Assembly (NCBI GenBank): GCA_030680695.1
Contig: JAUXUT010000149.1
Location: 357,000-420,999, forward strand
DNA from: a bacterium
GTDB lineage: Bacteria; Patescibacteriota; Minisyncoccia; Phycocordibacterales; UBA6065
Direction: 5' to 3'
DNA: 64,000 nucleotides
The notes below the pieces were generated by a model, which was not told where the DNA came from, made no database searches, and saw only the letters and a program-made list of their open reading frames with translations. Shown one piece after another: positions 7,260 to 45,162 of this stretch. Positions within the stretch are counted from its first letter, which is position 1. Each line of letters opens with the position of its first letter. The translations under genes and the position numbers were made by a program.

Positions 7260-9521
7260 ATGAGCAAACTTCTCATCGTAGAGTCGCCGGCAAAAGCAAA
7301 AACAATCGGGAAGTATCTCGGCGACGAATATGTCGTTGTTGCATCGGTCGGCCATGTGCGCGACCTGCCGAAATCAAACAAAAAGGCCATCGATATGGAA
7401 AGCTTTACGCCCCATTACGTTGTGTCCGAAGGCAAGGAATCAGTTCTTGCCGATATCAAACGTCTCGCCAAAAAATCTGATGAGGTCTTGCTCGCAACCG
7501 ACCCCGACCGCGAGGGTGAGGCTATCGCATGGCACATCGCCGAAGCCGTAGAATTCGGTGACAAACCGGTACGCCGCGTGGTATTCAACGAAATAACCAA
7601 GGACGCGATTATTGAGGCCCTCAAAAGCCCGCGCGACATCGATCAGAACCTACGCCAGGCACAAGAGGCCCGCCGTGTCCTCGACCGCCTCGTCGGATAC
7701 GACCTTTCTGGCATCATTTGGCAAAAGGTTCGTTATGGATTGTCGGCGGGCCGTGTGCAATCCCCCGCTCTCCGCATCCTAGTCGAACGCGAACGAGAAA
7801 TAGAAGCTTTTAAACCGGAAGGTTATTTTACTATCGTCGCCGAGACAAAAGCCGACACAAAAACAAACAAGAATGAATCTGCGTCGCTTTCACTCACCTG
7901 TTCTGAAGAACCCCGCGACCAAAAAGAAGCCGGCCGAATAGTAACCGTCGGCAAGAAAGAAGTTTGGTCCGTCGCAGACGTACAGGAAACCGAAGCCAAG
8001 CGATCTCCTAAGGCACCATTCACTACATCAACCCTGCAACAGGCGGCTTCGACACGTCTTGGATTCTCGCCATCTCGAACAATGCGTGCCGCCCAAAAAC
8101 TCTATGAAGCTGGCCACATCACGTACATGCGAACCGACTCGACTAACCTTTCAAAACAAGCTGTCGCAAATATAGCAGGCACAATCGAAAAGTTGTTCGG
8201 CAAAGAACTCGTCGAAACGCGCGTATACGCTACGAAATCCAAAAATGCCCAGGAGGCTCACGAAGCTGTCCGCCCAACAGACGCAAACAAACGCGCGGCC
8301 GGATCAACTGATGACGAAAAAAGGTTGTATGGTCTCGTCTGGGCTCGCACCGTCGCGTCGCAAATGAAAGACGGCCGGGTCATGCGCACTAAAATACTCG
8401 CAAACATCGCTTCCAAATCCGTGCCAGATTTCCAGGCAAACGGTTCACGCACCATATACAAAGGATGGCTCGAAGCAGATCCGGCCGCACAAGGCGACGA
8501 CGTCGAATTGCCAAAAGTTTCGAAAGGCGACGCTCTTTCACTCGTCGACATCGTGGCCACCCAGAAATTCACCGAACCACCATCACGATATTCCGAGGCG
8601 GGCCTCGTCAAAGAGCTCGAATCACGCGGCATTGGTCGACCATCCACATACGCATCGATCATCAAGACGCTCGAAGACCGCGAATATGTGACCAAGGAAG
8701 GACGATCGCTCAAACCAACTGACACGGGCATGGTGGTAAGCTCGTTCCTCGAAGATAATTTTGGACAATATATAAGTGACACCTTCACCGCTGAAATGGA
8801 AGACAAGCTCGACGCCATCGCAGACGGTTCGATGGGATACGAGAAAACCCTCGCTGATTTCTATAAACCATTCAGCAAGGAAGTAAAAGCAAAAGAAAAA
8901 CTCGACAAAGCCACCACCCTCGGCGAGGCAGACCCTTCGATGAAATGTCCGAAGTGCGGCGGTTCCATGATCATCAAGCTCGGCCGATCAGGCAAATTCC
9001 TGTCCTGCGCCAAATACCCGGACTGTGACGGCGCCCTTATGTTGGATGGAACAGAAATGCCAAAAGACAAGGTCATCGGCGTTCATCCCGCGCACAACGT
9101 TCCGATCACGCTAAAGTCCGGAAAATACGGCCCGTATGTCGAAATCGAACTGCCACCAGATCCAGAACCTGTTCCTGTGGAAGGCGAAAAGAAAAAGCGA
9201 AAATCAAAAAAGGCTCCAAAACCAAAACTCCGTCGCGCATCTGTACCAAAGGAAGTAAAACCCGAAGAAGTCACCCTCGACCAGGCCGTGCATTACCTTT
9301 CATTGCCACGCCAGCTCGGCACTCATCCTAAAACACAAAAAGTCATCACTGCAAATATAGGCAGATTCGGCCCATACATCGTCCATGACGGCGATTTCCG
9401 CTCAATCAAAAAAGCGTCGGGCGACGATGTGTACAAGATAGGGCTTGATCGAGCTCTCGAGATGCTCAAAGAACCGAAGAAACCGCGAGGATTTAATAAG
9501 AAGAAAAAGCTTGACAAATAG
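7260..9521 (+). CDS. topA: DNA topoisomerase I
   Basis: MSKLLIVESPAKAKTIGKYLG...VGHVRDLP TOPRIM motif and a C-terminal Zn-ribbon (CPKCGG...CAKYPDCDG). The true start is the ATG at 7260; the ORF track over-extends to 7221. Confidence 0.9.
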   Translation: MSKLLIVESPAKAKTIGKYLGDEYVVVASVGHVRDLPKSNKKAIDMESFTPHYVVSEGKESVLADIKRLAKKSDEVLLATDPDREGEAIAWHIAEAVEFGDKPVRRVVFNEITKDAIIEALKSPRDIDQNLRQAQEARRVLDRLVGYDLSGIIWQKVRYGLSAGRVQSPALRILVEREREIEAFKPEGYFTIVAETKADTKTNKNESASLSLTCSEEPRDQKEAGRIVTVGKKEVWSVADVQETEAKRSPKAPFTTSTLQQAASTRLGFSPSRTMRAAQKLYEAGHITYMRTDSTNLSKQAVANIAGTIEKLFGKELVETRVYATKSKNAQEAHEAVRPTDANKRAAGSTDDEKRLYGLVWARTVASQMKDGRVMRTKILANIASKSVPDFQANGSRTIYKGWLEADPAAQGDDVELPKVSKGDALSLVDIVATQKFTEPPSRYSEAGLVKELESRGIGRPSTYASIIKTLEDREYVTKEGRSLKPTDTGMVVSSFLEDNFGQYISDTFTAEMEDKLDAIADGSMGYEKTLADFYKPFSKEVKAKEKLDKATTLGEADPSMKCPKCGGSMIIKLGRSGKFLSCAKYPDCDGALMLDGTEMPKDKVIGVHPAHNVPITLKSGKYGPYVEIELPPDPEPVPVEGEKKKRKSKKAPKPKLRRASVPKEVKPEEVTLDQAVHYLSLPRQLGTHPKTQKVITANIGRFGPYIVHDGDFRSIKKASGDDVYKIGLDRALEMLKEPKKPRGFNKKKKLDK

Positions 9522-9539
9522 GCCTCACGGGTGTATAAT
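9511..9539 (+). promoter_or_regulatory. perfect-consensus sigma70 promoter (TTGACA-17-TATAAT) overlapping the topA stop and firing antisense into the parB 3' end
   Basis: gcTTGACAAAtaggcctCACGGGTGTATAATTagggTATAAGct. The same module recurs at 37586 and 45133. Confidence 0.5.
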
Positions 9540-9578
9540 TAGGGTATAAGCTAGTTAAAACCCTGGTGCTTTAAGCCT

Positions 9579-10559
9579 TTAAAGAGAAAAATTCTTTATA
9601 GAGTACAGGTCCTCGGTATTTTCATCCTCTTTCTTTTCTTCAACAGAACGGTCATCAACAGGAAGCACTGGTTCGGAAGGAACGCCTGCGGCGACTTCTT
9701 GGGTTAGAGATGGCGGCACGGCCCCTTTAGACTGAACAATGTTCAATATCGCCTTGAGGTCTTCTGGCGAGAAAAAGTCTATGGTGATCTTGCCTCCCTT
9801 TTGTTTCTGCTCGATCGAAACGCGGGTACCAAAAGTTTCGGAAAGTTTTTGTTCCATTTCAAGCATCTCTGGATCGAACATGCGTTCCTTTTTTCGCGCC
9901 TTCTCGACGGCGATTTTGCGAGCGATCATTTCGGTCTCACGTACAGTAAGCCTCTTGGAAAGTATCTCTTTGAAAAGAGTTGACTGCTCTTCAGGTCTGT
10001 CTGAAAGCATAAGAAGCGGTCGTGCATGACCCTCGCTTATCTTCCCTGCCGAAAGCGAGTCAAGGATATCAGTCGGCAAGGCAAGCAAACGTATCGAATT
10101 CGAAACATATTCGCGTGACTTGCCGATTTTCTCGGCGACTTGAACGTGCTTGAGGCCGAATTCAGATACAAGTTGGCTGAACGAACGGGCCCTTTCTACT
10201 GGGTTGAGATCCTCGCGTTGAAGGTTCTCTATGATGGCAAGTTCAAGCTTGACCCGAGCGTCGTCGGTGTTGGCGCGTATTATCGCCGGCACCTGCGGAA
10301 GGCCCAGAAGTTTAGATGCGCGCAGGCGGCGCTCGCCGGATATGAGCTCATACTCAACAACCATGCCTCCGTCTTCTTTATGAATCTCTGTCCTTGTGAC
10401 GGTAAGGGGCTGGAGCAATCCGTACATGCGAATTGACTCGGCAAGGTCACGAAGTGCGGCCTCGTCGAATTCACGACGTGGCTGATATGGGTTCGGACGC
10501 ACCTTGTCGGTGTCTATCCAGAATATCGAGTCTCCAAAAAATTGGGATGGCTGTGGCAT
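9579..10559 (-). CDS. parB: chromosome partitioning protein ParB/Spo0J
   Basis: ISGERRLRASKLLGLPQVPAII is the ParB box, with an HTH and a C-terminal dimerisation region. The true start is the MPQPSQ ATG at 10559; the track's N-terminal extension (…GRDSNPQ…) is the antisense translation of tRNA-Leu. Confidence 0.8.
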   Translation of the reverse strand: MPQPSQFFGDSIFWIDTDKVRPNPYQPRREFDEAALRDLAESIRMYGLLQPLTVTRTEIHKEDGGMVVEYELISGERRLRASKLLGLPQVPAIIRANTDDARVKLELAIIENLQREDLNPVERARSFSQLVSEFGLKHVQVAEKIGKSREYVSNSIRLLALPTDILDSLSAGKISEGHARPLLMLSDRPEEQSTLFKEILSKRLTVRETEMIARKIAVEKARKKERMFDPEMLEMEQKLSETFGTRVSIEQKQKGGKITIDFFSPEDLKAILNIVQSKGAVPPSLTQEVAAGVPSEPVLPVDDRSVEEKKEDENTEDLYSIKNFSL

Positions 10560-10619
10560 ACGGTTGGTGAGAAGAGATACAAGGATTTTATCATACAAAT
10601 TATCTTGAGGAAGAATTGA

Positions 10620-10648
10620 TTGAGAAAAGCTCTCCTTTAGTGTAGATT
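10620..10648 (+). promoter_or_regulatory. promoter for tRNA-Leu(CAA) and the downstream endonuclease (TTGAGA-17-TAGATT)
   Basis: TTGAGAaaagctctcctttagtgTAGATT; the -10 element ends about 10 nt before the tRNA 5' end. Confidence 0.35.
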
Positions 10649-10658
10649 TTGCATGTAT

Positions 10659-10739
10659 GCCGAGGTGGCGAAATGGCAACCGCAATCGACTCAAAATCGA
10701 TCGTCGCAAGACTTGAGGGTTCGAGTCCCTCCCTCGGCA
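10659..10739 (+). tRNA. tRNA-Leu (anticodon CAA), class II
   Basis: GCCGAGG acceptor pairs with CCTCGGC; anticodon stem ATCGA/TCGAT with loop CTCAAAA; long variable arm; T-arm GAGGG-TTCGAGT-CCCTC. Confidence 0.8.
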
Positions 10740-10740
10740 C

Positions 10741-11316
10741 ATGATGCATACGCCCAATACAGCCTATATCGTAGGGGTGGCTCTTGGCGACGGGAATCTC
10801 TCTAATCCCAATGGTCGAGCCGTCAGGCTGCGTATAACGTGTGACAAAAAGTACCCGAAGGTTATAGAGAACATACTGATATCATTGAGAGTGGGTCTTC
10901 CTGACAACAAGGTAAGTCTCGTGTATCGGAATGCTCGATGCCTTGATATATCATGTTATTCAAATAAGCTTGAGAACTTACTCGGATGGCGAGCCGATCT
11001 TGGCTCGAAATACCTTCAAAGGGTTCATGTGCCTTCTTGGATATTCAGAGATCCCTGGCTTATCCGACCATGCGTTCGCGGTCTTATAGAGACTGATGGG
11101 TGTGTGTTCACTGACAGGGGCTATACTCATGTCAACTTCACGACTATTATTCCGGAACTAGCGACAGATATGGAAAGAATGCTCACAATTCTGGGATTTA
11201 CGTATTCGACTCAACTAATAATTGCGAAAAGCTCAAATCGTAAGCCAAAATATGTCATAAGGATTTGCAAAAGAGGCAAAGAGTTCGTGGACGAATTTGG
11301 TATAGACAAAAATTAG
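10741..11316 (+). CDS. LAGLIDADG homing endonuclease, two-motif single-chain type
   Basis: VGVALGDGNL and VRGLIETDGCV are the two LAGLIDADG motifs. The ATG lies 1 nt after the tRNA-Leu 3' end. Confidence 0.75.
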   Translation: MMHTPNTAYIVGVALGDGNLSNPNGRAVRLRITCDKKYPKVIENILISLRVGLPDNKVSLVYRNARCLDISCYSNKLENLLGWRADLGSKYLQRVHVPSWIFRDPWLIRPCVRGLIETDGCVFTDRGYTHVNFTTIIPELATDMERMLTILGFTYSTQLIIAKSSNRKPKYVIRICKRGKEFVDEFGIDKN

Positions 11317-11356
11317 TTTTGCAAATAAGACTCACCACTGATAATACTGCCTATAT

Positions 11357-12265
11357 ATGAAGAAACAATTACCGAAAATAATCGTTGTATGCGGCCCCAC
11401 CGCGACCGGCAAGAGCGATCTTGCCGTGCTTTTGGCGCGCGAACTCGACGCTGAAATTGTATCGGCAGACTCGCGCCAAGTGTACAGGGGTATGGACATC
11501 GGGTCAGGTAAAATCACCGCGCGCGAAATGAAAAAAATCCCACATCATCTCCTCGACGTTGCCGACCCGCGCAAGGCGCGATACACCGTTGATGATTTCA
11601 AGCGCGACGGTGAAGCGGCCGTGGCGGATATTCTTTCACGCGGCAGGCTCCCTATCATCTGCGGCGGCACAGGATTTTATATCGACGCCTTGGTCAAAGG
11701 TGAAACATATCCAGATGTGCCGCCGAACCAGACATTGCGCAAACAACTCGCCAACAAAACTGTGGTGCAGCTCATGGCAATGATCCGGAAACTCGACCCT
11801 CGTCGTGCAAAAACCCTCGACCCATTCAACAAAGTCCGCATCATACGCGCGATCGAAATCGCGAAAACCCTAGGCTCGATTCCTAAAGTCCGACGCGCGC
11901 CAAAATACAATGCCTTCTACATCGGCCTCACCCTCGACAAAGAATCTTTGCGAGAAAAGATACACGTTCGTCTTATAAAACGTATCAAAGCCGGCATGGT
12001 CGTCGAAGTGGCGAAACTGAAGACTTCTGGAGTCTCATGGAAACGCCTAGAGGCTTTCGGTCTCGAATACCGATACGTTGCGCTCTACCTCCAGAAAAAA
12101 CTGACAAAAGACGAGATGCTCGCCCAACTCGAATCAGAAATCGTCAGATATGCCCGCCGCCAAATGCAGTGGTTTACGAAGAACAAAGGCATATTGTGGT
12201 TATCGCCAGCCGAAAAACAAAAGGCTCTCATTTCAGCCAAAAAATACTTGAGGGTGTCCGCCTAA
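11357..12265 (+). CDS. miaA: tRNA dimethylallyltransferase
   Basis: IIVVCGPTATGKSDLAVLLA...SADSRQVYRGMDIGSGK matches the MiaA P-loop region. Confidence 0.9.
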   Translation: MKKQLPKIIVVCGPTATGKSDLAVLLARELDAEIVSADSRQVYRGMDIGSGKITAREMKKIPHHLLDVADPRKARYTVDDFKRDGEAAVADILSRGRLPIICGGTGFYIDALVKGETYPDVPPNQTLRKQLANKTVVQLMAMIRKLDPRRAKTLDPFNKVRIIRAIEIAKTLGSIPKVRRAPKYNAFYIGLTLDKESLREKIHVRLIKRIKAGMVVEVAKLKTSGVSWKRLEAFGLEYRYVALYLQKKLTKDEMLAQLESEIVRYARRQMQWFTKNKGILWLSPAEKQKALISAKKYLRVSA

Positions 12266-13413: not shown

Positions 13414-13483
13414 ATCGTTAATACGCAGAATTCTACACTATCTTTGTAAAAGGCGCGGACGATATGTTATGCTCAGCCCGTAT

Positions 13484-13557
13484 GGGCGATTAGTTAAGTG
13501 GCATAACGAGGCACTCCAAACGCCTTGTCGGGGGTTCGATTCCCTCATCGCCCGCCA
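13484..13557 (+). tRNA. tRNA-Trp (anticodon CCA)
   Basis: GGGCGAT acceptor pairs with ATCGCCC; loop CTCCAAA; T-arm GGGGG-TTCGATT-CCCTC; CCA is encoded. Confidence 0.85.
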
Positions 13558-13577
13558 GGTATTAGCATGCAACGAAC

Positions 13578-13880: not shown

Positions 13881-13968
13881 AAAGTGTATAACTCTATTGT
13901 GCTCTCGCGCACGCATCTTACAATTAGAGTAGGTCGCATTATTCGAAAACATAACAACAGCTACCGAA

Positions 13969-14082: not shown

Positions 14083-14094
14083 CCAAAAAGAAAA

Positions 14095-14128
14095 CCGCCC
14101 CAGATTTGTCTGAGGCGGCTTTCTTTTA
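14095..14128. terminator. bidirectional terminator shared by the polybasic ORF (+) and rpmG (-)
   Basis: CCGCCCCAGAtttgTCTGAGGCGG stem with T-runs on both strands. Confidence 0.6.
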
Positions 14129-24659: not shown

Positions 24660-24688
24660 TTGACTTTTTATACATAAGGTAGTATAAT
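24660..24688 (+). promoter_or_regulatory. near-perfect sigma70 promoter (TTGACT-17-TATAAT) for the SPFH/NfeD-like pair
   Basis: cTTGACTttttatacataaggtagTATAATtg, followed by an AGGAGA ribosome-binding site 8 nt before the ATG at 24759. Confidence 0.6.
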
Positions 24689-24758: not shown

Positions 24759-26078
24759 ATGAAAAACCAGACCGTGATGGGGATGATCCTGTGGATCTTC
24801 GCCTTCTTCATCGCAGTCGCACTGTCCATCTACTTGATGGGTGTTGCGAACGTGCTCGTCTTAGGGCTCGGGACACTGATTTCACTCCCCTTGTGGGCGT
24901 GGGCAGTGTATCTGAGCGCGAAGACCGATCGACAGTTCACCTTCCGACGCACCGGAGAAATCAAGTTCAGTAAGGACGGCGAGGTGATCGACACGGTCAT
25001 CGCTCACGTCCCAGGGTTCTTCTATGACAAGGAGAACGATCTGATGGTCGAAGAGAAAGGCTCCGCGAACGGGCAGGGCGATGAGACAGACAGTAAGTTC
25101 TCTCGCTTGGTCAAGAAATTGGCCTCGGTCTTCGTGAAGGATGCGAAGAAGGACAAATCGGGCCTCGTGCTCGTGAGTCTCCTTTATCCATACCGCCGGC
25201 TTCACAGCTGGAAGTTCACGTGGACCAAGTTCGCGTCCAAGACACACAGCGAGGCGGGACGGGATCGGGTGTTCGATGATTACCTCATCGAGGAACGGAC
25301 AGAAGATGCGATAAAAAGCCTCTACTTCCAATACATCTACCCGATCGTGGTCAGGGAAATCGACCTCAAGGGCAAGATTCAGATAAAGATCCTGCTCCAG
25401 GTTACCCTCCGCGTGCGAAAGCCGTTGCACATCATCGGCTTTTACAAGGGAAACTTCCTGTCGGCCGTGATATCCGAAATCAAGGGCATTGTGGATAACG
25501 GCGTCGGTCATACCAAGGACATTGATGAATGGTATGCCGAAGACAGGGAGTCCGTCATCGACAAACTCCTGCACCCTTACAAGAACAAACTCTTGCAGGT
25601 GCTCGGGGGTGATCTCGAAATAGTGGACGCGTCCTACGTCAGCTTCGATTTCGACGGACCGAACGCCGAAATCAATCGAAAGGCCGCGTCCCAGAAAGAG
25701 CTTAATCGGCTAGAGGGTGACGGCACCATCGAAAAGGCGACGAAAGAAGCCGAGGCTGAGAAGAAACGGGCCGAACAAGAGATCACGAGGGCCCAGGGCG
25801 CGGCAAGAGCAGCCGAGCATGAGGCAACGGCCATAACGAGCATCGCTGCGGCGAAAGCTGCAGATGTCCGTATGGCTCTCGAGCAAGCGGCAAAGCATCC
25901 CCAGGGCGTGGAATTCCTCCTTGCGCGTGAGCGCACGGCGGCAACCGCTGCCTTCCGTGGCTCCACCCTGATCATGGATGGTTCTCGTGGAGGCGTCATG
26001 GTTTCAGCTGGCGAAAGCAAGCCGACCCAAGGCGAACCCAAGAAGGACAAGAAAGGCGAGAAGGAGGTGTCATCATGA
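24759..26078 (+). CDS. SPFH/band-7 (flotillin/YqiK-like) membrane protein, divergent
   Basis: Two N-terminal TM helices; a central region with a beta-rich core (KGKIQIKILLQVTLRVRKP); a C-terminal EA-rich helix (EAEAEKKRAEQEITRAQGAARAAEHEA...) that resembles the SPFH C-terminal AERE...AEGE region. Confidence 0.45.
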   Translation: MKNQTVMGMILWIFAFFIAVALSIYLMGVANVLVLGLGTLISLPLWAWAVYLSAKTDRQFTFRRTGEIKFSKDGEVIDTVIAHVPGFFYDKENDLMVEEKGSANGQGDETDSKFSRLVKKLASVFVKDAKKDKSGLVLVSLLYPYRRLHSWKFTWTKFASKTHSEAGRDRVFDDYLIEERTEDAIKSLYFQYIYPIVVREIDLKGKIQIKILLQVTLRVRKPLHIIGFYKGNFLSAVISEIKGIVDNGVGHTKDIDEWYAEDRESVIDKLLHPYKNKLLQVLGGDLEIVDASYVSFDFDGPNAEINRKAASQKELNRLEGDGTIEKATKEAEAEKKRAEQEITRAQGAARAAEHEATAITSIAAAKAADVRMALEQAAKHPQGVEFLLARERTAATAAFRGSTLIMDGSRGGVMVSAGESKPTQGEPKKDKKGEKEVSS

Positions 26079-26794
26079 ATCTCTTGAGCCAAACTTCCGC
26101 ATGGATGCTGTGGGTCGCGGTGACCCCCATCGCTGTGGCGATCTTGATAGTCATCATGATGTCCACGGATGCCAAGGATTGGATGAAGTCAACGGTTGCG
26201 GGTCAGACCGCGAACGGCAAAACCATCGCGATCCTCTGTGTCCTGATAACAGCCACGAACTACATCATCTCAAAGTTTAACTACGAGTGGTGGTGGGCGT
26301 TGTGGTTGCATGGACCGTTCTTCATGGTTAACCTTGCCATATTGCTGGGCTGCTGGATTAGCATGTCTACCTTCGGGAAACTCGCGAAGGTGGGCGCTGT
26401 CATCATGGTAGCCTTCGCTCTGGCGGGTTGGATCAAGGTTGCTGTCGAGTCGCCGACCAGGGCCGAGATTGCGGCCCAAGCTTCGGAAAGACAACAAGCG
26501 CAAGTCATGGTCCCAACCTTCCAACGAATCGAGGACACCATCCAAGTCCGCAAGGGCGAATGGTCTCACCCGATTGTTGCTGGCGACATCATTCAGATTC
26601 AGTCGGTCACCGGTCTATACGTTCGGTATGATGGGAAAGGCACCGGAAAGCCTATGGCGCCCGGGGTCAAGAACATCATCCCGTTCGAGGCGGTGATGCA
26701 GGAAGTCCGGTCAACCGACCAGGCCTTCTGGATCAAATATTGGCGCGTGGTGCCCACAACGGCACTGGGTGGCGATGATGATCCACTAGACTGA
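26075..26794 (+). CDS. NfeD-like membrane protein (4 TM plus C-terminal beta-barrel), SPFH partner candidate
   Basis: ATGA overlap with the upstream gene. Four TM helices, then RKGEWSHPIVAGDIIQIQSVTGLYVRYDG, which resembles the NfeD C-terminal GE-x-W...G-x-V-x-V motif. Confidence 0.4.
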   Translation: MNLLSQTSAWMLWVAVTPIAVAILIVIMMSTDAKDWMKSTVAGQTANGKTIAILCVLITATNYIISKFNYEWWWALWLHGPFFMVNLAILLGCWISMSTFGKLAKVGAVIMVAFALAGWIKVAVESPTRAEIAAQASERQQAQVMVPTFQRIEDTIQVRKGEWSHPIVAGDIIQIQSVTGLYVRYDGKGTGKPMAPGVKNIIPFEAVMQEVRSTDQAFWIKYWRVVPTTALGGDDDPLD

Positions 26795-37138: not shown

Positions 37139-37155
37139 TCTCGAATATCCTCCGC

Positions 37156-37455
37156 CTATATCGGCAAATCATGAACAGCACGCGCAATTATGCGCGTCGC
37201 TTTTCGTATATCTGATTTCCAGAGTTCCTGTTTGTGTCCAAGACCTATTCTCCGAACCAGATGGCGTCCTTCAAGTCTTTTCATAATAGTCGGTAGCGAG
37301 CCGCGTGGAATTTCCGAATATCGTGCAATCGCCGACATGCTTTTTGCTACTCGTGATAAAAGTAGGATTTTCCGTTCGGATTCAGAAAGGCCGAGTATGT
37401 CGAAGGCTTTTTGCAAAGCCGCGTCGCGATTCTCGTGTTCATTTTGCGTTTTCAT
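37156..37455 (-). CDS. winged-helix transcriptional regulator (TrmB/MarR-like HTH)
   Basis: 99 aa; LGLSESERKILLLSRVAKSMSAIARYSEIPRGSLPTIMKRLEGRHLVRR is an HTH plus wing. Confidence 0.5.
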   Translation of the reverse strand: MKTQNEHENRDAALQKAFDILGLSESERKILLLSRVAKSMSAIARYSEIPRGSLPTIMKRLEGRHLVRRIGLGHKQELWKSDIRKATRIIARAVHDLPI

Positions 37456-37487
37456 CCCTCCCTTATACCATCATCTTTTTGAGAACA

Positions 37488-37524
37488 GTGGGACATTTGA
37501 TGAAAATTTCATCAAATGTCCCAC
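37488..37524. promoter_or_regulatory. perfect 18-bp inverted repeat (candidate operator) between the HTH regulator gene and the sRNA promoter
   Basis: GTGGGACATTTGATGAAA-A-TTTCATCAAATGTCCCAC, 33 nt upstream of the regulator ATG. No T-run suits a terminator. Confidence 0.5.
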
Positions 37525-37585
37525 GTATTGAAAAAAGCATTAAAGAGCCCCGTAAGGCCGTTAAATGGCACGGTCGCCAAAAGGC

Positions 37586-37614
37586 TTGACAAAATAATGG
37601 CACGGGTGTATAAT
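37586..37614 (+). promoter_or_regulatory. perfect-consensus sigma70 promoter (TTGACA-17-TATAAT) for the ORF-less transcript
   Basis: gcTTGACAAAataatggCACGGGTGTATAATTgtaTATAAGtct; same module as at 9511. Confidence 0.6.
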
Positions 37615-37620
37615 TGTATA

Positions 37621-37762
37621 TAAGTCTTTCTGTTATTTTGTTTCTACCCGTCTCACGACGGGCACTCGGCCACAGGTACCAAGTCGGTTCCTTGTTGCGG
37701 CGGTGGTGGGGTATCATCCCGCGACAGAAATAAGGGCGCTCCACTCTGGAGCGCCCTTTTTA
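37621..37762 (+). ncRNA. candidate small non-coding RNA (~140 nt, unknown family)
   Basis: The transcript is bounded by the consensus promoter and the intrinsic terminator AAGGGCGCTCCactctGGAGCGCCC-TTTTTATTT. It contains no ATG and has internal hairpins (CCCGTCtcacGACGGG). Confidence 0.4.
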
Positions 37763-38407
37763 TTTATTGAACTGCGCGTTGTACTCACCCATCGCACGTT
37801 CCGGCGAATCGGTCACAGACATCTCGAGACAATCCACCACTTTCTTTATAACTTTTTTAAGTTCATCGGCTTCCTTGTCTTTGAACTCGGCGACTATGAA
37901 ATTGTCGGTGATGGTGTCGTGGTCTGGCTTCTTCAAAGCACCTTTGGCCGTGGCCGGTGTGATGCCAATGCGAATGCGATAAAAAGCCTGGGTGCCGAGG
38001 GCGCGGATGACCGAGTCAACACCCTTGTGGCCACCGGCACTTTTGTCCCACGATACTTTGGCCTTGCCCAAAGGTATGTCGAGATCGTCATGGACAACGA
38101 TAACGTCGGCGAGGGCCTTTTTTGGCTTGCCGTCCGGACCTTTCACTTTCTTCGCGCCTTTGGCGTATTTGGTTAAGGCCGAACCACTCTTGTTCATAAA
38201 GGTCTCGGGCAGTACGAGCGTTACCTTGCCTCCCTTACTTCCCTTGCCACCAACCTTCCCCGACAAAACCAAAGCATTGGTTTTCTTGTCGAATTCAAAA
38301 TCGCCGAGGTCCGCCTTTTTTGCAAACTTCTGCACTGCTTCGCGGCCCGCATTGTGTCGCGTGCCTTCGTATTCTTGTCCTGGGTTTCCTAGTCCGATGA
38401 TTATCAT
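37760..38407 (-). CDS. pth: peptidyl-tRNA hydrolase
   Basis: MIIIGLGNPGQEYEGTRHNAGREAV...VVHDDLDIPLGK matches the Pth catalytic His region. There is a ~35-aa C-terminal extension. Confidence 0.85.
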   Translation of the reverse strand: MIIIGLGNPGQEYEGTRHNAGREAVQKFAKKADLGDFEFDKKTNALVLSGKVGGKGSKGGKVTLVLPETFMNKSGSALTKYAKGAKKVKGPDGKPKKALADVIVVHDDLDIPLGKAKVSWDKSAGGHKGVDSVIRALGTQAFYRIRIGITPATAKGALKKPDHDTITDNFIVAEFKDKEADELKKVIKKVVDCLEMSVTDSPERAMGEYNAQFNK

Positions 38408-38512
38408 AATGAGAATAGGATACCATGCCTTTCAGCAAGCCGACATGGTGTGCCACTTCCTGTCAACGTCGCTTGCGAGCTATACTTACGCATCAATTAA
38501 CCGCTCTACTAT

Positions 38513-39121: not shown

Positions 39122-39125
39122 CTAT

Positions 39126-40370
39126 ATGAATATCAAGGCAATGCCGGCTAAGAAGGTTAAAAAGATCGAGCATCCTAAATACGTTTCCTATGACCATGTC
39201 GATGCAGCTGGAGAGGCCGCACTCTTCTATGGATTTACTCCACTCACCCATCCACACATCCATCCGAACGACAGTGCCGCCGCAAAATCCATATCTGAAG
39301 GTGAGATTGTTATTGACCATGACGACCATTCCGAAGGAGCGGTAGTCCGACTCGAAGAAAAAATTGCTCTCTTGCGCCTCCATGAACGCGAGAAACTCAT
39401 CGCGACCCCACAGCCTGTTATGTTGTATTACCGCAAACCTTTCATAGGCGACCGCCGCAAGCCGAACCCTAAAGAAGTCCACCACGGCCTCGAAATCCTA
39501 GGTACTAACAAATCCATCGCCGAAGCATTGCTTATCAAGGCGTCGCTTGCCATCCTTACAGACGCCGGCGAAACAGACCTTCGTGTAGAAATAAACTCAA
39601 TCGGCGACAAAGAATCGATTGCACGTTTCTCGCGCGAAATAACGGCTTACTATCGCCGATTCCTTAACGAGCTCCCAGCCAACTGCAAGCAACTCATGAA
39701 AAAGGACGTGTTCAGCCTCCTTGGCTGTGATCACGAGGCTTGCCTGCGACTTGCACAAGACTGCCCAAAGTCGATCAACTTCCTTTCGGAAGCCTCGCGT
39801 CAGCATTTCAAAGAAGTGCTCGAATACCTCGAGGAACTTGGTATCCCGTACACGATTAACAACTCGCTTGTCGCCAATCGCGACTACTGCAGCGAAACCG
39901 TATTCGAGATACGCGGATCGGATCCAAAGGGTCATCCAAAGGCCATCGGCATCAGGTATGACACCCTGGCCAAACGCCTTGGACACAAAAAAGAGCTTCC
40001 TGCCGTAGGTGTATCGCTCGCCATCAACAAAAAAGCTGCCAAAACTGCAGCGGTAAAGAAAACTGTCATCGCAAAAATCCTCGATCCTCAAATTTGCTTC
40101 ATGCAGCTCGGTTTTGAGGCAAAGCTCAAGTCGCTTGAATTGCTCGAGATACTCCGCAAGGCACGAATCCCAGTAAACCACTCGCTCGCCAAAGACAAGA
40201 TGGCTGGCCAGATTGGCATGGCTGAAAAAATGCAGGCCCCAGTCGTAGTCATCATGGGCAAGAAAGAAGCCATGGAAGGATCGGTTATCGTTCGCGAAAC
40301 ATCCACACGATCACAGGACACTATTCGATTCGACGACGTTGCCGCACAGCTCAAGAAGTTTAAAGTATAG
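39126..40370 (+). CDS. hisS: histidyl-tRNA synthetase-like class II enzyme (divergent N-terminus)
   Basis: YYRKPFIGDRRKPNPKEVHHGLEILG matches HisRS motif 2; IGIRYDTLAKRLGHKKELPAVGVSLAI matches motif 3 (GGRYD...PAVGF). A C-terminal anticodon-binding-like domain is present, but canonical motif 1 is not evident. Confidence 0.55.
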   Translation: MNIKAMPAKKVKKIEHPKYVSYDHVDAAGEAALFYGFTPLTHPHIHPNDSAAAKSISEGEIVIDHDDHSEGAVVRLEEKIALLRLHEREKLIATPQPVMLYYRKPFIGDRRKPNPKEVHHGLEILGTNKSIAEALLIKASLAILTDAGETDLRVEINSIGDKESIARFSREITAYYRRFLNELPANCKQLMKKDVFSLLGCDHEACLRLAQDCPKSINFLSEASRQHFKEVLEYLEELGIPYTINNSLVANRDYCSETVFEIRGSDPKGHPKAIGIRYDTLAKRLGHKKELPAVGVSLAINKKAAKTAAVKKTVIAKILDPQICFMQLGFEAKLKSLELLEILRKARIPVNHSLAKDKMAGQIGMAEKMQAPVVVIMGKKEAMEGSVIVRETSTRSQDTIRFDDVAAQLKKFKV

Positions 40371-40373
40371 AAA

Positions 40374-40478
40374 GCTCCGTATGCCCTTTCCTGGAGACCA
40401 TCGGAGGCCGACGGGCCGAGATCGAGCGCCCGGCCTCCAAGGCCGGGACGCGTGCTCCGGGAAAGGGCCATACGGGGC
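40374..40478 (+). promoter_or_regulatory. ~105-nt nested inverted-repeat element upstream of rpsU
   Basis: The outer ~20-bp stem (GCTCCGTATGCCCTTTCCTGGAG ... CTCCGGGAAAGGGCCATACGGGGC) encloses an inner hairpin (GGAGGCCG ... CGGCCTCC). Confidence 0.35.
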
Positions 40479-40520
40479 GAACCTTGAGCTTTTCCTAGCC
40501 ATATGATAAGCTATCGACCT

Positions 40521-40775
40521 ATGGCAACAAACGTAGAAGTATCGCGAAACGGCACCGAAAATCCCCTCTCCCTTTTGAGGCGCTTCACAAAGCGCGTCCA
40601 GGGATCTGGTATTCTTCCTCGCGTCCGAAAGGATCGATACCACGAGCGAACCTTGTCTCACTACAAGACCAAGATGAAGACGCTCGAGGGCATCAAACGC
40701 CGCGAGGAACGCGCCGAGCTCATCAAACTGGGCAAAATCAATCCTGAGGCAGAGCGCGCAGCTCGCCGACGATAA
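40521..40775 (+). CDS. rpsU: 30S ribosomal protein S21
   Basis: VEVSRNGTENPLSLLRRFTKRVQGSGILPRVRKDRYHERTLSHYKTKMK matches the S21 pattern (V-x-V...ALRRFKR...R-R-x-Y-E). The start is at MATNVEV; the track starts at 40503. Confidence 0.6.
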   Translation: MATNVEVSRNGTENPLSLLRRFTKRVQGSGILPRVRKDRYHERTLSHYKTKMKTLEGIKRREERAELIKLGKINPEAERAARRR

Positions 40776-40783
40776 TCCGACCA

Positions 40784-41161
40784 ATGTCGGTTTCCATTCT
40801 AAACAAGACCAAAGGCAAGCTCCCCCGCTTGCCTTTCGCGTCTATGAAAGATGCGGTGCTCGGTGCCGAATATGAACTTTCCCTTGTATTTGTCGGGGAT
40901 GCAGAATCTCGCCGTATCAACATAGAAACGCGCGACAAGGATTATGTCCCGAACGTCCTCTCGTTCGAACTTGATGACTGGTCTGGTGAGATATTCATAA
41001 ACCCAAAAGAGGCTGCCCGACAGGCAAAAGATTTTGGCCGAACGCCTTCAAACATGATTGTATTTCTGTATATCCACGGCCTTTGCCATTTGAAAGGATT
41101 GAAGCATGGTAGTAAGATGGAGAGAACAGAGGTTGGATTCCGTAAGGAGTTCGGCATCTAG
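40784..41161 (+). CDS. ybeY: rRNA maturation endoribonuclease YbeY
   Basis: IHGLCHLKGLKHG is the H-x-x-x-H-x-x-x-x-x-H zinc motif. Confidence 0.8.
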   Translation: MSVSILNKTKGKLPRLPFASMKDAVLGAEYELSLVFVGDAESRRINIETRDKDYVPNVLSFELDDWSGEIFINPKEAARQAKDFGRTPSNMIVFLYIHGLCHLKGLKHGSKMERTEVGFRKEFGI

Positions 41162-41170
41162 GACCTCCCC

Positions 41171-42322
41171 ATGCGTAAGCACACCGCCGTAGGCATAGAC
41201 ATTGGCACCCAAGACATTAAGGTCGTGGTGGCTTCTTCTGACGGCACAGGCGAGCGAGCCTTGCCGAAGATAATCGGCACATCTACTGTCGAGTCTAAAG
41301 GCGTGCGCCATGGATATGTAGTGAACATTTCCGAAACCGCCAAGTCATTGCGCATCGCCATTGCCCAGGCCGAACGCGCATCCGGAGTAAAAATCCGCAA
41401 GGCCTTCGTATCAATTGGCGGCGTGAGCCTCCAGAGCGTTTCGACTCTTGGGTCGGTAATCATATCGCGCGGCGATTCTGAAGTATCAGAACTCGACCTC
41501 GACAAGGCAACTGCCGCTGCCGAACGCAATCTTTCAACATCGCAAACTTCGAACAGGCGCATCATTCACACGATACCTCTTTCATATCGCATCGACGGAA
41601 AACCAGTATTCGGACGACCGCAAGGAATGAAGGGTAACAAGCTCGAAGCAAAAGTTCTCTTTATCACTTGCCTGACGCAGCACCTCGAAGACCTCATCGA
41701 GACCTGCGACGAAGCAGGCGTCGAAGTGCTCGACGTAACCGCCGCGCCGATTGCCGCATCGCTCGTCCTTCTTTCCAAGAACCAAAAAGTCGCCGGCTGT
41801 GTGCTCGCAGATATGGGTTCTGAAACCACTTCCATTGTCGTATACGAGAACAATCTCCCGATATCGCTGGAAGTATTCCCGATCGGCTCGACCGACGTTA
41901 CAAACGACATCGCTCTTGGGCTCAAAATACCGATCGAAGACGCCGAAGGCGTGAAGCGCGGCGGCCCGGCCGCCGCGCAGTTCTCGAAGAAAAAGCTCGA
42001 CGATATTATGGGCGCGCGACTATACGATATATTCGAACTGATCGAAGAGCACCTAAAAAAGATTGATCGAAACGGACTTCTCCCTGCTGGAATTATCCTT
42101 TCGGGTGGTGGATCTGGTATTTCTGGCATTGACGGGCTCGCCAAGGAATCCCTTGGGCTCCCTTCGCGTGTTATATTGGCGCGCGATTCGGCAATATCCG
42201 TCGCCTACGGCCTCGGTATGCTCGGATTAGGCACGGAAGAAGCCAATGACGTTCATGGCGTGCGACGCGGAACGTCGATGCTCGCAAAACCACTCGCCTG
42301 GCTAAGACAACTCCTCCCATAA
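41171..42322 (+). CDS. ftsA: cell division protein FtsA
   Basis: Actin-like fold: VGIDIGTQDIKVVVA phosphate-1 and ILSGGGSGISGIDGLAKESLGLPSRV adenosine motif. Confidence 0.85.
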   Translation: MRKHTAVGIDIGTQDIKVVVASSDGTGERALPKIIGTSTVESKGVRHGYVVNISETAKSLRIAIAQAERASGVKIRKAFVSIGGVSLQSVSTLGSVIISRGDSEVSELDLDKATAAAERNLSTSQTSNRRIIHTIPLSYRIDGKPVFGRPQGMKGNKLEAKVLFITCLTQHLEDLIETCDEAGVEVLDVTAAPIAASLVLLSKNQKVAGCVLADMGSETTSIVVYENNLPISLEVFPIGSTDVTNDIALGLKIPIEDAEGVKRGGPAAAQFSKKKLDDIMGARLYDIFELIEEHLKKIDRNGLLPAGIILSGGGSGISGIDGLAKESLGLPSRVILARDSAISVAYGLGMLGLGTEEANDVHGVRRGTSMLAKPLAWLRQLLP

Positions 42323-42335
42323 AGGCCACCTTGTC

Positions 42336-42361
42336 AACCCCTTGATACATAAGGGGTTTTT
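42336..42361 (+). terminator. terminator after ftsA, overlapping the ftsZ promoter
   Basis: AACCCCTTgatacatAAGGGGTT followed by TTTTT. Confidence 0.5.
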
Positions 42362-42369
42362 GCTATAAT
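42342..42369 (+). promoter_or_regulatory. ftsZ promoter (TTGATA-16-TATAAT)
   Basis: TTGATAcataaggggtttttgcTATAAT, about 55 nt upstream of the ftsZ ATG. Confidence 0.5.
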
Positions 42370-42423
42370 CCGCCTACGTTACCAAACCCCGAACGAGAAC
42401 CCTCGCGCGGCTTATAAAACACA

Positions 42424-43614
42424 ATGCCAAATATCGTTCCAGAAGTAGAGACATTCGCACGAATCAAGGTTATTGGAGCCGGCGGCTCGGGCAAAAACAC
42501 CGTGAACCACATGGTTGCTGCCAAGGTTAAGGGTGTCGAGTTTATCGCCATCAACACCGACGCCCAGGACCTCCATCACTCACTCGCCAAGAAAAAGATC
42601 CATATCGGTAAGAACCTAACCAAGGGTCTGGGAACCGGCATGAACCCAGAGCTCGGCCGACGCGCAGTTGAAGAAACAAAAGAAGAACTCCAGGAAGCAA
42701 TCAAAGGTGCTGACATGGTATTCGTCGCAGGCGGTCTCGGCGGAGGAACAGGATCAGGCGCAACTCCAGTAATCGCCAAAACTGCAAAGGAACTTGGCGC
42801 ACTCACCATCGGTGTTGTCACCAAGCCATTCTTCTTCGAAGGAAACCAGCGCATGAAGATTGCAGACGTCGCTCTTGAGGCTCTTCGCAAGGAAGTTGAC
42901 GCACTCATCGTCATTCCAAACGACCGACTCATGGCAAACATCGACAGGAACACTACTGCCAAGGCCGCTTTCGCCATCTGCGACGAGGTCTTGAAACAGG
43001 CTGTTGAAGGTATCTCTGACCTCATCACCACCCCAGGAACTATCAACATAGACTTTGCCGACATCCGATCTATCCTCGAAAACACTGGATCAGCTCTCAT
43101 GGGTATCGGTACCGCATCTGGCGAGAAACGAGCCGAGGACGCCGCAAAAATGGCAATCTCGTCCCCTCTCCTAGACATCTCGATTGCTGGCGCCAAGGGT
43201 GTGCTCTTCTCTATCGCCGGCGGTGACGACCTCACCATGTTCGAAATTCAGGACGCTGCAAAGGTCATCACTGAATCGATTGACCCGAACGCCAAGGTAA
43301 TCTTCGGAACCGTACGTGATGACAAGCTGAAGAAGGGTGAAGTAAAAGTCACCGTCATCGCTGCTGGTTTTGGTGACTCCCCTACGCTCGCACCACTTTC
43401 TAAACCTAAGTCTCTCTTCTCGTCGTCCACTCCAGAAGAAAAGAAAGAAGAGTCCAAGAAAGCCATCCATAACACCGTGTCCGCCCCTGCGCCACGCACA
43501 GAGGAAAAACCTCTAGCCAAGATGGATGACAAGAAACCTTCTATCCCAACCATCGATTCTGATGACGATGACAATTGGGGCGCGGTGCCGGCGTTTCTCC
43601 GACGAAAAAAGTAA
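42424..43614 (+). CDS. ftsZ: cell division protein FtsZ
   Basis: GGGTGSGATPVIAKTAKE is the tubulin signature, with an Asp-rich C-terminal tail. Confidence 0.9.
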   Translation: MPNIVPEVETFARIKVIGAGGSGKNTVNHMVAAKVKGVEFIAINTDAQDLHHSLAKKKIHIGKNLTKGLGTGMNPELGRRAVEETKEELQEAIKGADMVFVAGGLGGGTGSGATPVIAKTAKELGALTIGVVTKPFFFEGNQRMKIADVALEALRKEVDALIVIPNDRLMANIDRNTTAKAAFAICDEVLKQAVEGISDLITTPGTINIDFADIRSILENTGSALMGIGTASGEKRAEDAAKMAISSPLLDISIAGAKGVLFSIAGGDDLTMFEIQDAAKVITESIDPNAKVIFGTVRDDKLKKGEVKVTVIAAGFGDSPTLAPLSKPKSLFSSSTPEEKKEESKKAIHNTVSAPAPRTEEKPLAKMDDKKPSIPTIDSDDDDNWGAVPAFLRRKK

Positions 43615-43622
43615 GGGTTCAG

Positions 43623-43715
43623 AAAAGGAGGCCCTGTGAAGCACGGATATTTTCCTACTGGAAAATTCCTCGAGCTCGCGCCGTCGAGCTCGCTAGTCTT
43701 CACAGGGCCTCCTTT
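43623..43715. terminator. large ~93-nt stem-loop between convergent ftsZ and the 43718-43999 gene (bidirectional terminator candidate)
   Basis: AAAAGGAGGCCCTGTGAAG ... CTTCACAGGGCCTCCTTTT outer stem, with an inner CGAGCTCG x2 palindrome. Confidence 0.45.
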
Positions 43716-43717
43716 TC

Positions 43718-43999
43718 TTACCTTTGTTCGAGTCTCGTGATGCGGGAATGTAAAGTGAGAACATCTTCCCTGTCTGCCTTACGTATAGCAAGATCGTCTA
43801 TCTTACGTTCAAGCCTTTCAAATCCGTCGAACACCATTTCGAAACCTTCCATCATTTTTGCTTCGAGCCGCCCGAGCTTAGTATCAAGCTTCTCATCAAG
43901 CTTGGCATCGAGCTTAGTTTCGAGCTTCTCATCCAAAAGCCTCTCGAACACGCCGACCGTGAGCACGTCATCCCTGTTGATTTTATCAAGCATGATCAT
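43718..43999 (-). CDS. small coiled-coil protein (hypothetical)
   Basis: Heptad-like KLETKLDAKLDEKLDTKLGRLEAKM repeats and no TM. A GGTATAAT -10-like element lies ~20 nt upstream. Confidence 0.3.
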   Translation of the reverse strand: MIMLDKINRDDVLTVGVFERLLDEKLETKLDAKLDEKLDTKLGRLEAKMMEGFEMVFDGFERLERKIDDLAIRKADREDVLTLHSRITRLEQR

Positions 44000-44146
44000 A
44001 GAAGTTGAAAGATTATACCGCTAATCCATCTTCGCATTCCAGCGCAGAATGTCATCACGACACAGATAAAATAAAGCTCAAGAAATTCGGAGAAAAAAGC
44101 CGCGCTTACTCTGCACTTTATTTTTCGTATGTCAATGAATCCATTG

Positions 44147-44155
44147 GCCGTCCAT
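44147..44155 (+). promoter_or_regulatory. extended -10 promoter element (TGGTACAAT) upstream of trxB
   Basis: The TGnTACAAT element sits 22 nt before the ATG at 44177; there is no good -35. Confidence 0.3.
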
Positions 44156-44176
44156 TTGGTACAATAGTCCCTACCT

Positions 44177-45094
44177 ATGTACGACTTGGCAATCATCGGC
44201 GGCGGACCAGCGGGCGTTGCGGCGGGCGTCTATGCTTCGCGCAAGCGCCTCAAAACCATATTCATCACCAAGGACTGGAACAGCCAATCCACCGTATCCG
44301 AAGGCATCGAAAACTGGATCGGCACGGTCAAGATTTCCGGCCCGGATTTCGCAAAATCATTGGAATCACATCTGCGTGCATACGCGGCAGATGTTGTAGA
44401 CATAAAGGTCGGCGAGTGGGTAACCAAAGTATCGGGCACAGACGGCGATTTCACTGTTGAATCAGACAAGGAATCGTACAAGACCAAGTCTGTGCTCGTT
44501 ACAACTGGTTCGGCACGCCGCAGACTCGACGTCCCCGGCGCCGATCAGTTTGAACACAAAGGCGTCACATACTGCGCTTCTTGTGACGGCCCAGTATTTT
44601 CCGGCCAAGAAGTCGTCGTGGTGGGCGGCGGCAATGCAGCGTTCGAAAGCGCCGCCCAACTCCTTGCTTACTGTTCCAAAGTTACGCTTCTCAACCGTTC
44701 TGGCGAGTTCCGCGCCGACCCATCAACCGTTGCCAAGGTTCTTGCTCACCCAAATATGGTCGCCATAAAAAATGCTGTCCCGACCGAAATAAAGGGTTCC
44801 AAGTTTGTAACAAGTATTTCGTACAAAGACACCGTGACCGGCACCACAACAGACATTCCCGCCGCCGGGATATTCGTCGAGATCGGATCTCTCCCTGCAA
44901 CTGGTTTTGTGCAGGGCCTCGTAGACCTTGACCCGACGGGACACATCAAAGTGGATCCCCTTACCCAAGCAACTTCCGCAAAAGGCGTCTGGGCGGCCGG
45001 CGATTCGACCGACGGTCTATATCACCAGAACAATATTGCTGCGGGTGATGCTGTAAAAGCCCTCGAAGACATATACCTCCATCTGCGCGCATAA
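44177..45094 (+). CDS. trxB: thioredoxin-disulfide reductase
   Basis: IIGGGPAGVAAGVYA (FAD), CASCDG redox-active disulfide and VVGGGNAAFESA (NADPH). Confidence 0.9.
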   Translation: MYDLAIIGGGPAGVAAGVYASRKRLKTIFITKDWNSQSTVSEGIENWIGTVKISGPDFAKSLESHLRAYAADVVDIKVGEWVTKVSGTDGDFTVESDKESYKTKSVLVTTGSARRRLDVPGADQFEHKGVTYCASCDGPVFSGQEVVVVGGGNAAFESAAQLLAYCSKVTLLNRSGEFRADPSTVAKVLAHPNMVAIKNAVPTEIKGSKFVTSISYKDTVTGTTTDIPAAGIFVEIGSLPATGFVQGLVDLDPTGHIKVDPLTQATSAKGVWAAGDSTDGLYHQNNIAAGDAVKALEDIYLHLRA

Positions 45095-45132
45095 TCTTGC
45101 GTAAGGCCTATACATGGCCATATTTTTGTCTA

Positions 45133-45162
45133 TTGACAAACACCCCTGAATGGGTGTATAAT
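45133..45162 (+). promoter_or_regulatory. consensus sigma70 promoter (TTGACA-18-TATAAT) for the 97-aa ORF
   Basis: aTTGACAAAcacccctgaaTGGGTGTATAATatatag; shares TTGACAAA and GGGTGTATAAT with the promoters at 9511 and 37586. Confidence 0.55.

Follow-up and report, generated by a model that had tools for sequence, protein, structure and literature searches.

Four perfect-consensus promoter modules, probably strong and of the housekeeping-sigma type, in a 64-kb stretch of a Patescibacteriota genome

We analyzed a stretch of 64,000 nucleotides (nt) from a bacterium of the Patescibacteriota (assembly GCA_030680695.1, contig JAUXUT010000149.1, positions 357,000 to 420,999; hereafter the window), which carries four copies of a promoter module. 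In each copy, the exact hexamers TTGACA and TATAAT are set in a shared, extended context. Modules 1 (9511 to 9539, plus strand) and 2 (37586 to 37614, plus strand) have the form CTTGACAAA-N10-GGGTGTATAAT with a 17-nt spacer, module 3 (45133 to 45162, plus strand) reads TTGACAAA-N11-GGGTGTATAAT with an 18-nt spacer, and module 4 (51052 to 51081, minus strand) reads CTTGACAAA-N11-GGGTGTATAAT, also with an 18-nt spacer. Module 1 lies at the junction of topA and parB, and module 2 lies between the S1 gene and pth. Module 3 lies 39 nt past a trxB-like gene, and module 4 lies 8 nt past the stop codon of a conserved open reading frame (ORF) of 91 amino acids (aa). An earlier sequence-only reading had listed the first three sites; a pattern search re-found all of them and added the fourth, which lies outside the range that reading covered and had been missed.

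Promoters that match the consensus at all 12 hexamer positions are rare in the natural genomes of model bacteria. The exact pattern TTGACA-N16-18-TATAAT occurs four times in the window, compared with 0.02 matches expected from dinucleotide-preserving shuffles. The extended string TTGACAAA-N10/11-GGGTGTATAAT also fits all four sites (19 specified bases in common; 0.00 matches expected in 100 shuffles), which bears out the earlier claim of a common context around the -35 and -10 elements. We then graded consensus matches over the whole window, holding A at -11 and T at -7 fixed and taking the expectation from a first-order Markov model. There were four 12/12 matches (0.0 expected), two 11/12 matches (0.33 expected), eight 10/12 matches (6.7 expected), and 46 9/12 matches (52 expected). 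Since the two lower grades show no excess over expectation, the 12/12 sites stand apart as a discrete class. Of the 11/12 sites, one is a variant at 24660 and the other is the ftsZ promoter at 42342 (both described below). A search of the window for GGTGTATAAT with up to one mismatch returned the four sites and no others, i.e., no degenerate copies of the module.

We aligned 200 nt around seven promoters from four organisms (i.e., the four window sites and three related promoters of other organisms). Invariant positions were confined to TTGACAA, a second A located three bases further along, GGTGTATAAT, and a single column attributable to chance, and the spacers and flanks had no alignable similarity. 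Since spacers and flanks are unrelated, the modules are not members of a dispersed repeat. A window-wide search for direct repeats listed no family that covers the four sites, and no inverted repeats flank them besides terminators and a palindrome at site 2. We regard chance, compositional bias, or a repeat other than a promoter (e.g., the end of a miniature mobile element) as an extremely improbable source of the pattern. The small size of the sample, four sites, is all that speaks for it. It is opposed by the shuffle expectations given above, the correct orientation of the sites ahead of units with a terminator or an ORF, and the conservation of the promoter upstream of homologous genes in other organisms; a repeat is further opposed by the lack of flanking similarity and of inverted terminal repeats.

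The conserved blocks keep their sequence while the spacer between them varies, from 17 nt in modules 1 and 2 to 18 nt in modules 3 and 4. Elements read by a sigma factor are favored over the operator of a regulatory protein, because an operator would hold the spacing fixed. The sequence-only reading had also counted TATA(A/G)(A/G) at +1 as part of the shared context. TATAAG or TATAGA is indeed present at sites 1 to 3, at distances of 6, 3 to 5, and 2 nt after the -10 hexamer, respectively; it is lacking at site 4 and at four of the five homologous promoters elsewhere and so is not a conserved element.

Directly behind module 3 lies an ORF of 97 aa (45171 to 45464, plus strand), as the sequence-only reading had stated. 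Its ATG is found 8 nt past the -10 hexamer without a Shine-Dalgarno sequence, so that the messenger RNA (mRNA) is predicted to be leaderless. A GC-rich hairpin (GGCCCCACGCATGCGCGGGGCC) followed by a T run (45481 to 45513, plus strand) forms a putative intrinsic terminator; it was read directly from the sequence and was not listed by the consensus scan. We predict that the gene is a monocistronic leaderless unit. Leaderless mRNAs of Mycobacterium and Deinococcus (PMC3898074 and PMC4007540) likewise have the -10 element 7 to 10 nt before the start codon and no Shine-Dalgarno sequence, as seen at site 3 and in two of its homologous loci (L201 and L209). They differ from the present case in that leader length is not conserved in the 97-aa family and that leaderless status is here a prediction.

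The 97-aa ORF sequence is also present on a second assembly. Its first homologue is 36% identical over the full length, with the motifs GNPTGFARK and TDRFS in common. A profile search of 1.84 billion representatives returned eight proteins at E values of 0.001 or less, including the query and this homologue, and the weakest of the eight (628 aa) is a local match only. The structure model is confident (predicted local distance difference test score, 88.3), and no specific fold match was found for it; a chaperone-like binding role is at most a faint possibility. No Pfam or NCBIfam family matched the protein, and a tblastn search of a phage collection gave no match.

For six members of this family we compared the DNA around the gene (the window, L201, L202/L203, L207, L208, and L209). 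The gene usually comes after trxB and a DUF417-like gene, and all six members keep an upstream promoter of the form TTGAC[A/T/C]-N17/18-(G)GGTGTATAAT, with GGATGTACAAT in its place in L209. TTGACA-N18 and GGGTGTATAAT stand 8 nt (from the -10 element to the ATG) before the gene in the window, TTGACA-N17 and GGGTGTATAAT 10 nt before it in L201, and TTGACT-N17 and GGGTGTATAAT 18 nt before it in L207. The promoter of L202/L203 (TTGACA-N17 and cGGTGTATAAT) lies ~48 nt from the ATG, with a 45-nt leader, that of L208 (TTGACA-N17 and GGGTGTATAAT) is followed by a leader of ~70 nt, and that of L209 (TTGACC-N17 and GGATGTACAAT) lies 10 nt from the ATG. Leader length thus ranges from ~0 to 3 nt in three members through ~11 nt in one to 45 to 70 nt in two. 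The proteins are ~26 to 36% identical to the window copy, and the promoter, GGTG included, is better conserved than the protein that it precedes. Because homologous genes of five other organisms have retained the promoter, the module at site 3 is in all likelihood functional and old.

Modules 2 and 4 each precede a candidate small RNA. The sequence-only reading had named one such RNA among the targets, and the sequence supports two. Small RNA 2 (37620 to 37766, plus strand; ~145 nt) is predicted to fold into a three-hairpin body with a long-range closing stem (minimum free energy, -64.4 kcal/mol; z = -6.6), and it ends in an intrinsic terminator with a 12-bp stem and a U tract (37732 to 37758). 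It contains no ATG. Small RNA 4 (50895 to 51045, minus strand; ~150 nt) has a comparably stable predicted fold (-58.6 kcal/mol; z = -6.0). Its terminator (50896 to 50927) has perfect 14-bp arms and is bidirectional, being common to the RNA and a convergent transfer RNA (tRNA) gene for serine. The sole ATG of this RNA sits in the loop of a hairpin, and the frame that it opens continues into sequence antisense to the tRNA-Ser gene. Both RNAs have the features of small-RNA genes (i.e., their own promoter, an intrinsic terminator, a stable fold, and no plausible ORF). Rfam 15 at the gathering threshold returned tRNAs only over the whole window, and permissive thresholds in three regions gave matches on terminator hairpins only and no family for either RNA. 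Neither blastn nor nhmmer found a homologue of either RNA among the 80 syntenic relatives or all other loci gathered, and conservation with compensatory base changes was accordingly not seen. In a scan of both RNAs against the window for RNA-RNA duplexes, the best z scores (-3.7 and -4.7) were the expected tail of ~8,500 windows.

The insert between the S1 gene and pth that holds small RNA 2 also contains a divergent ORF of 99 aa (37156 to 37455, minus strand). Its product matches a TrmB-type helix-turn-helix (E = 3e-5) with 24.2 bits, slightly under the Pfam cutoff of 25.6, and is winged-helix-like. A homologue search returned only the protein itself (a hypothetical protein in the NCBI metagenome-assembled genome), and the ORF is missing from the relatives. 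Between this ORF and module 2 lies a 63-bp palindrome with 31-nt arms (37475 to 37537), a possible operator. The winged-helix ORF, the palindrome, and small RNA 2 together resemble a cassette made up of a regulator, an operator, and an RNA, set into the gap that separates the S1 gene from pth; the DNA of this cassette had no match in the phage collection.

At site 1, where Pfam identified the topA and ParB domains, the -35 hexamer of module 1 falls within the final topA codons (K-L-D-K-stop). TopA ends in KKKKLDK in the window, and nearly all relatives have KKKKE or KKKAE at this end. The -35 hexamer is spelled by the additional L-D-K codons (9507 to 9521), and two distant relatives end in KKKLD. 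The parB gene, on the minus strand, ends at 9579, and the transcript predicted from the distance to the -10 hexamer (9546 to 9700, plus strand) would start at ~9546, i.e., 33 nt from the parB stop codon. Promoter orientation and parB position thus agree with the earlier suggestion of a transcript antisense to the parB 3' end. The 155 nt downstream of the site have no stable fold (z = +1.15 versus shuffles), and no terminator-like site was found there. The topA-parB junction varies among relatives: in L205, a -35 element (TTGACT) in the last topA codons (KKKLD-stop) is followed by a CATAAT -10 element and a 101-aa ORF that the window lacks, and L206 has a 146-aa ORF on the other strand. Site 1 may be a leftover promoter whose cargo gene was lost. 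A LAGLIDADG-like ORF adjoins parB in the window (10741 to 11316, directly after tRNA-Leu), in L205 (13988 to 14650), and in L206 (10673 to 11242); such a constant position in relatives is not usual when a domain of the homing-endonuclease type lies outside any intron or intein.

The relatives were gathered by an FtsZ search, which gave 80 metagenome loci (FtsZ identity, 65 to 91%; 810 kb in total). Their conserved gene order runs from a gene for an 829-aa protein through the S1 gene, a gap, and pth to ftsA, ftsZ, and trxB, and a variable stretch follows. The S1-pth gap measures 10 bp to 2 kb, and no relative has small RNA 2 or the winged-helix ORF in it. Relatives have kept the 91-aa ORF that precedes site 4, and in them tRNA genes come directly after it, without such an RNA. 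Exact hexamer pairs number six in the 810 kb of relatives versus four in the 64-kb window. On the basis of gene order, sites 1, 2, and 4 appear to be lineage-specific additions in variable junctions between conserved genes. Similar arrangements exist elsewhere. In the closest relative (L121), TTGACAAA-N-AGGTGTATAAT occupies the same place after trxB and would drive a methyltransferase gene, and in the S1-pth gap of L125, TTGACAAG-N-TGGTGTATAAT stands ahead of a terminated RNA of ~110 to 120 nt. This RNA, which would start from a perfect GGTGTATAAT promoter, is antisense to the 3' end of a transposase-like gene (HTH_38 helix-turn-helix domain) in the same gap (4216 to 5247 of L125).

Such additions raise the question of origin, i.e., whether the modules are copies of the old promoter of the 97-aa gene, spread by promoter capture or gene conversion, with some of them, site 1 above all, surviving as relics. 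The age of site 3, the position of sites 1, 2, and 4 in lineage-specific inserts or variable junctions, and the genome-specific signature TTGACAAA plus YGGGTG common to the four sites are consistent with copying. In addition, AAARGC before the -35 element and CAC...T around the -10 element are common to sites 1 and 2, and the -35 element of L205 likewise lies in the last topA codons but drives the 101-aa ORF lacking in the window. However, spacers and flanks are dissimilar and no listed repeat family links the sites, so that copying is not demonstrable; moreover, relics would decay, and all four sites are perfect at 12/12 plus eight extra positions, with no degenerate copies. We consider this account improbable, and since it concerns origin rather than present function, it is compatible with the reading of the sites as promoters that we prefer below.

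The extension GGTG directly before TATAAT was counted in 867 kb of relatives (window excluded), where sites were called promoter-like when TATAAT had a -35 element within one mismatch. GGTG is present at 8 of 29 promoter-like sites versus 0 of 521 other TATAAT hexamers (Fisher's test, 2e-11); once the four that belong to the 97-aa family are set aside, 4 of 25 versus 0 of 521 remain. In relatives, the outcome that the sequence-only reading had named as refuting (an extended motif no more frequent than the bare hexamers predict) was thus not observed. Among the 10-mers GGTGTATAAT in the window and relatives, 13 of 13 have TTGAC[A/T/G] 17 to 18 nt upstream. In the module (GGGTG|TATAAT), TG occupies -14/-13, flush with the hexamer, and the canonical T at -15 and G at -14 of an extended -10 element are not present; a consensus scan likewise scored no TG before the second hexamer.

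Well beyond these relatives, the 19-base pattern has at least 119 matches in contigs taken at one genome per species versus ~17 expected by our own arithmetic. The matches listed come mostly from Clostridia/Oscillospiraceae and Patescibacteria and lie upstream of genes or terminated RNAs. In viral contigs, the pattern has at least 120 matches; when GGGTG is replaced by GGGAG or GGGTC, the number is 63 or 17, respectively, and the canonical GGTGG-TATAAT also has at least 120. These counts indicate a preference for T at -14, and above all for G at -13, well beyond this clade. Other perfect promoters are common in the clostridial loci (43 in 870 kb), where AA typically follows the -35 element and TRTGn precedes the -10 element. 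Four 8-kb blocks from Patescibacteria or uncultured organisms (L010, L018, L047, and L110) each carry a second GGGTGTATAAT promoter besides the one for which they were chosen, and the module may be frequent in several other candidate-phyla lineages.

In Ruminococcus and Oscillospiraceae, the same perfect promoter precedes a transcript of ~55 to 60 nt consisting essentially of one long hairpin and a U tail, with the sequence (CATA)GAGGCAAGGRCGYC ... GRCGYCCTTGTCTC TTTTTT. Such transcripts lie directly downstream of the match in L002, L016, L033, L051, L056, L058, L064, L069, L096, L099, and L120, and compensatory changes are visible between loci. No Rfam family was found for them in the ten loci searched.

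On this evidence, we consider it likely that the four sites are promoters of maximal strength in a small Patescibacteria genome, read by its housekeeping sigma factor (sigma-A/sigma-70 type). The sequence-only reading had proposed strong sigma-A promoters, and the conserved bases do coincide with the -35 and -10 hexamers at 17 or 18 nt, with each site heading a plausible transcription unit. Sigma region 4 would read TTGACA and region 2 would read TATAAT, at the optimal spacing of 17 to 18 bp. Two accessory contexts are kept in addition, namely, A-rich bases right after the -35 element and GGTG flush with the -10 element (-16 to -13). GGTG might aid RNA polymerase binding, contact sigma region 3, or stabilize the duplex at the upstream fork of the bubble. 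Sites 2 and 4 would then make terminated, highly structured RNAs of ~150 nt, and site 3 would make a leaderless mRNA for the conserved 97-aa protein, with its own terminator. Site 1, without cargo, would fire antisense into the parB 3' end. Transcription itself, its strength, the start points, the role of GGTG, and all RNA and protein functions are what we infer from the sequence.

The four window sites resemble one another more closely than they do the GGTG promoters of relatives, sharing AAA after the -35 element, G at -17, and a pyrimidine at -18. AA after the -35 element is found at 4 of 4 window sites versus 2 of 8 sites in relatives, and G at -17 is found at 4 of 4 versus 3 of 8. This likeness hints at within-genome copying or a genome-specific optimum. 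It would also suit a regulator site overlapping the promoters, in which the bases beyond the hexamers (AAA and YGGGTG) are bound by a protein and the four units form a regulon rather than being constitutively strong. The winged-helix ORF and the 63-bp palindrome adjoining site 2, and the fact that housekeeping genes do not use the module, are in keeping with such a regulon. We nevertheless give it little credence: the blocks shift independently with 17- or 18-nt spacers, which the site of a dimeric regulator would hold constant, reading the sequence gives no convincing dyad symmetry, and the palindrome of site 2 is missing at the other three sites. Furthermore, the same 19 bases stand before unrelated genes in Clostridia, other Patescibacteria, and phages, which points to RNA polymerase as the reader. 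Since these bases are so common in those groups and in phage contigs, the module appears to be a widespread optimum of housekeeping-sigma promoters and not a new system.

Several observations weigh against the interpretation of the sites as promoters of maximal strength. The housekeeping genes and 11 tRNA genes of the window lack the module, which would be odd if it marked the highest expression. Sites 1, 2, and 4 are missing from the syntenic positions in all relatives, and because these units are not present there, their function is without support from conservation. Four of the eight GGTG sites of relatives belong to one family, that of the 97-aa gene, and are not independent. GGTG differs from canonical TGn, which is kept at ftsZ in the same lineage. 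Finally, the window represents 64 kb of a contig of ~650 kb, so that the description of the sites as the strongest promoters of the organism goes beyond its scope.

A bolder proposal goes further than strong housekeeping-sigma promoters. The modules would belong to a discrete class of "super-promoters" in Patescibacteria, and perhaps also in Clostridia and their phages, in which flush GGTG at -16 to -13 is an obligatory third element, distinct from the canonical TGn extended -10 element and always paired with a full -35 element. This class would be reserved for tiny accessory transcripts (structured small RNAs and an often leaderless small-protein family), with copies installed as lineage-specific cassettes beside conserved genes. 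We hold this proposal to be rather unlikely as a whole.

The promoter type itself is well known. Consensus sigma-70/sigma-A promoters, such as strong phage early and synthetic ones, have the same exact hexamers and 17- to 18-bp spacing and head short, presumably highly expressed units; the present case differs in that four perfect copies occur in 64 kb, all sharing eight further bases. In Gram-positive bacteria, a "-16 region" with a TRTG motif was reportedly described by Voskuil and Chambliss in 1998. Extended -10 (TGn) and TRTG promoters likewise have a G/T-rich element just upstream of the -10 hexamer that goes with strong promoters; that of the module is enriched only when the -35 element is present, and its TG abuts TATAAT instead of lying at -15/-14. 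Putative mobile promoters, i.e., identical upstream regions before unrelated genes, are said to have been reported by Matus-Garcia et al. in 2012. Here too, one promoter sequence stands before nonhomologous cargo in one genome, but the likeness is limited to ~20 functional bases, with no extended identical segment.

The strong-promoter candidates of Thermotoga maritima, predicted with a triad pattern algorithm, include CTTGACA-N-GGTGTATAAT upstream of the pilin-related TM_1271 and GAGTGTATAAT upstream of a tRNA-Ser gene (PMC2412878). Flush (G)GTG is thus found in other deep-branching bacteria also, although these are predictions for one organism and no GGTG-defined class was described there (PMC2412878). 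A literature search on promoters of candidate-phyla (Patescibacteria) bacteria found nothing, and a search for the motif string found nothing relevant besides the Thermotoga list. Patescibacteria promoters are essentially uncharacterized. The novelty of our findings is modest and lies in the discrete promoter spectrum, the constant pairing of flush GGTG with a full -35 element, and the cargo (two RNAs and one protein family).

If verified, a compact promoter that is strong and has a known accessory context could serve in practice as a building block for new genetic systems in Patescibacteria. The modules also act as signposts: following them uncovered a small-protein family and two structured RNAs without annotation, kinds of genes that are missed in the annotation of reduced symbiont genomes. 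The discrete spectrum of matches suggests that most genes here use weak or noncanonical promoters and that a few tiny units are driven maximally.

The near-consensus variant at 24660 (24660 to 24688, plus strand) reads TTGACT-N17-TATAAT. The sequence-only reading had grouped it with the modules; it is real at 11 of the 12 hexamer positions, but it has GGTAG before the -10 hexamer and not the GGGTG extension. A leader of ~65 nt with AGGAG follows, and then a two-gene membrane-protein unit (24759 to 26794). The identification of this unit as an SPFH pair was not borne out, since neither gene has a Band_7 (PF01145) or SPFH match in Pfam, even at E values up to 1. The first gene (24759 to 26078) matched nothing in Pfam at E values of 1 or less, and the second (26075 to 26794) had chance-level matches only (E of ~0.2 to 0.3). 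The first protein has an EA-rich coiled-coil tail reminiscent of SPFH/HflK proteins.

The ftsZ promoter (42342 to 42369, plus strand; TTGATA-N16-TGcTATAAT) does not belong with the modules and provides an internal control, indicating that this lineage uses sigma-70-type elements. Its footprint (TTGWWA-N16-TGnTATRAT, with tTGcTATAAT or tTGgTATGAT) is conserved in about ten relatives (L121 to L133), so that a canonical extended -10 promoter of Patescibacteria is cleanly footprinted by comparison across relatives. A leader motif after the promoter, ACCAAACC, is likewise conserved across about ten relatives. A one-base shift in the way that the sigma factor of this lineage reads the extended -10 element was considered and rejected, given the conservation of canonical TGn at ftsZ.

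Two repetitive ORFs were also noted in the window. Between ftsZ and trxB, a 93-aa ORF (43718 to 43999, minus strand), weakly conserved and in the closest relative only, contains an in-frame tandem repeat with 12- or 24-nt spacing (43873 to 43933). A 1,296-aa ORF (60070 to 63960, minus strand) has repeats at multiples of ~129 nt, with a 34-nt core occurring nine times, and probably encodes a large repetitive surface protein.

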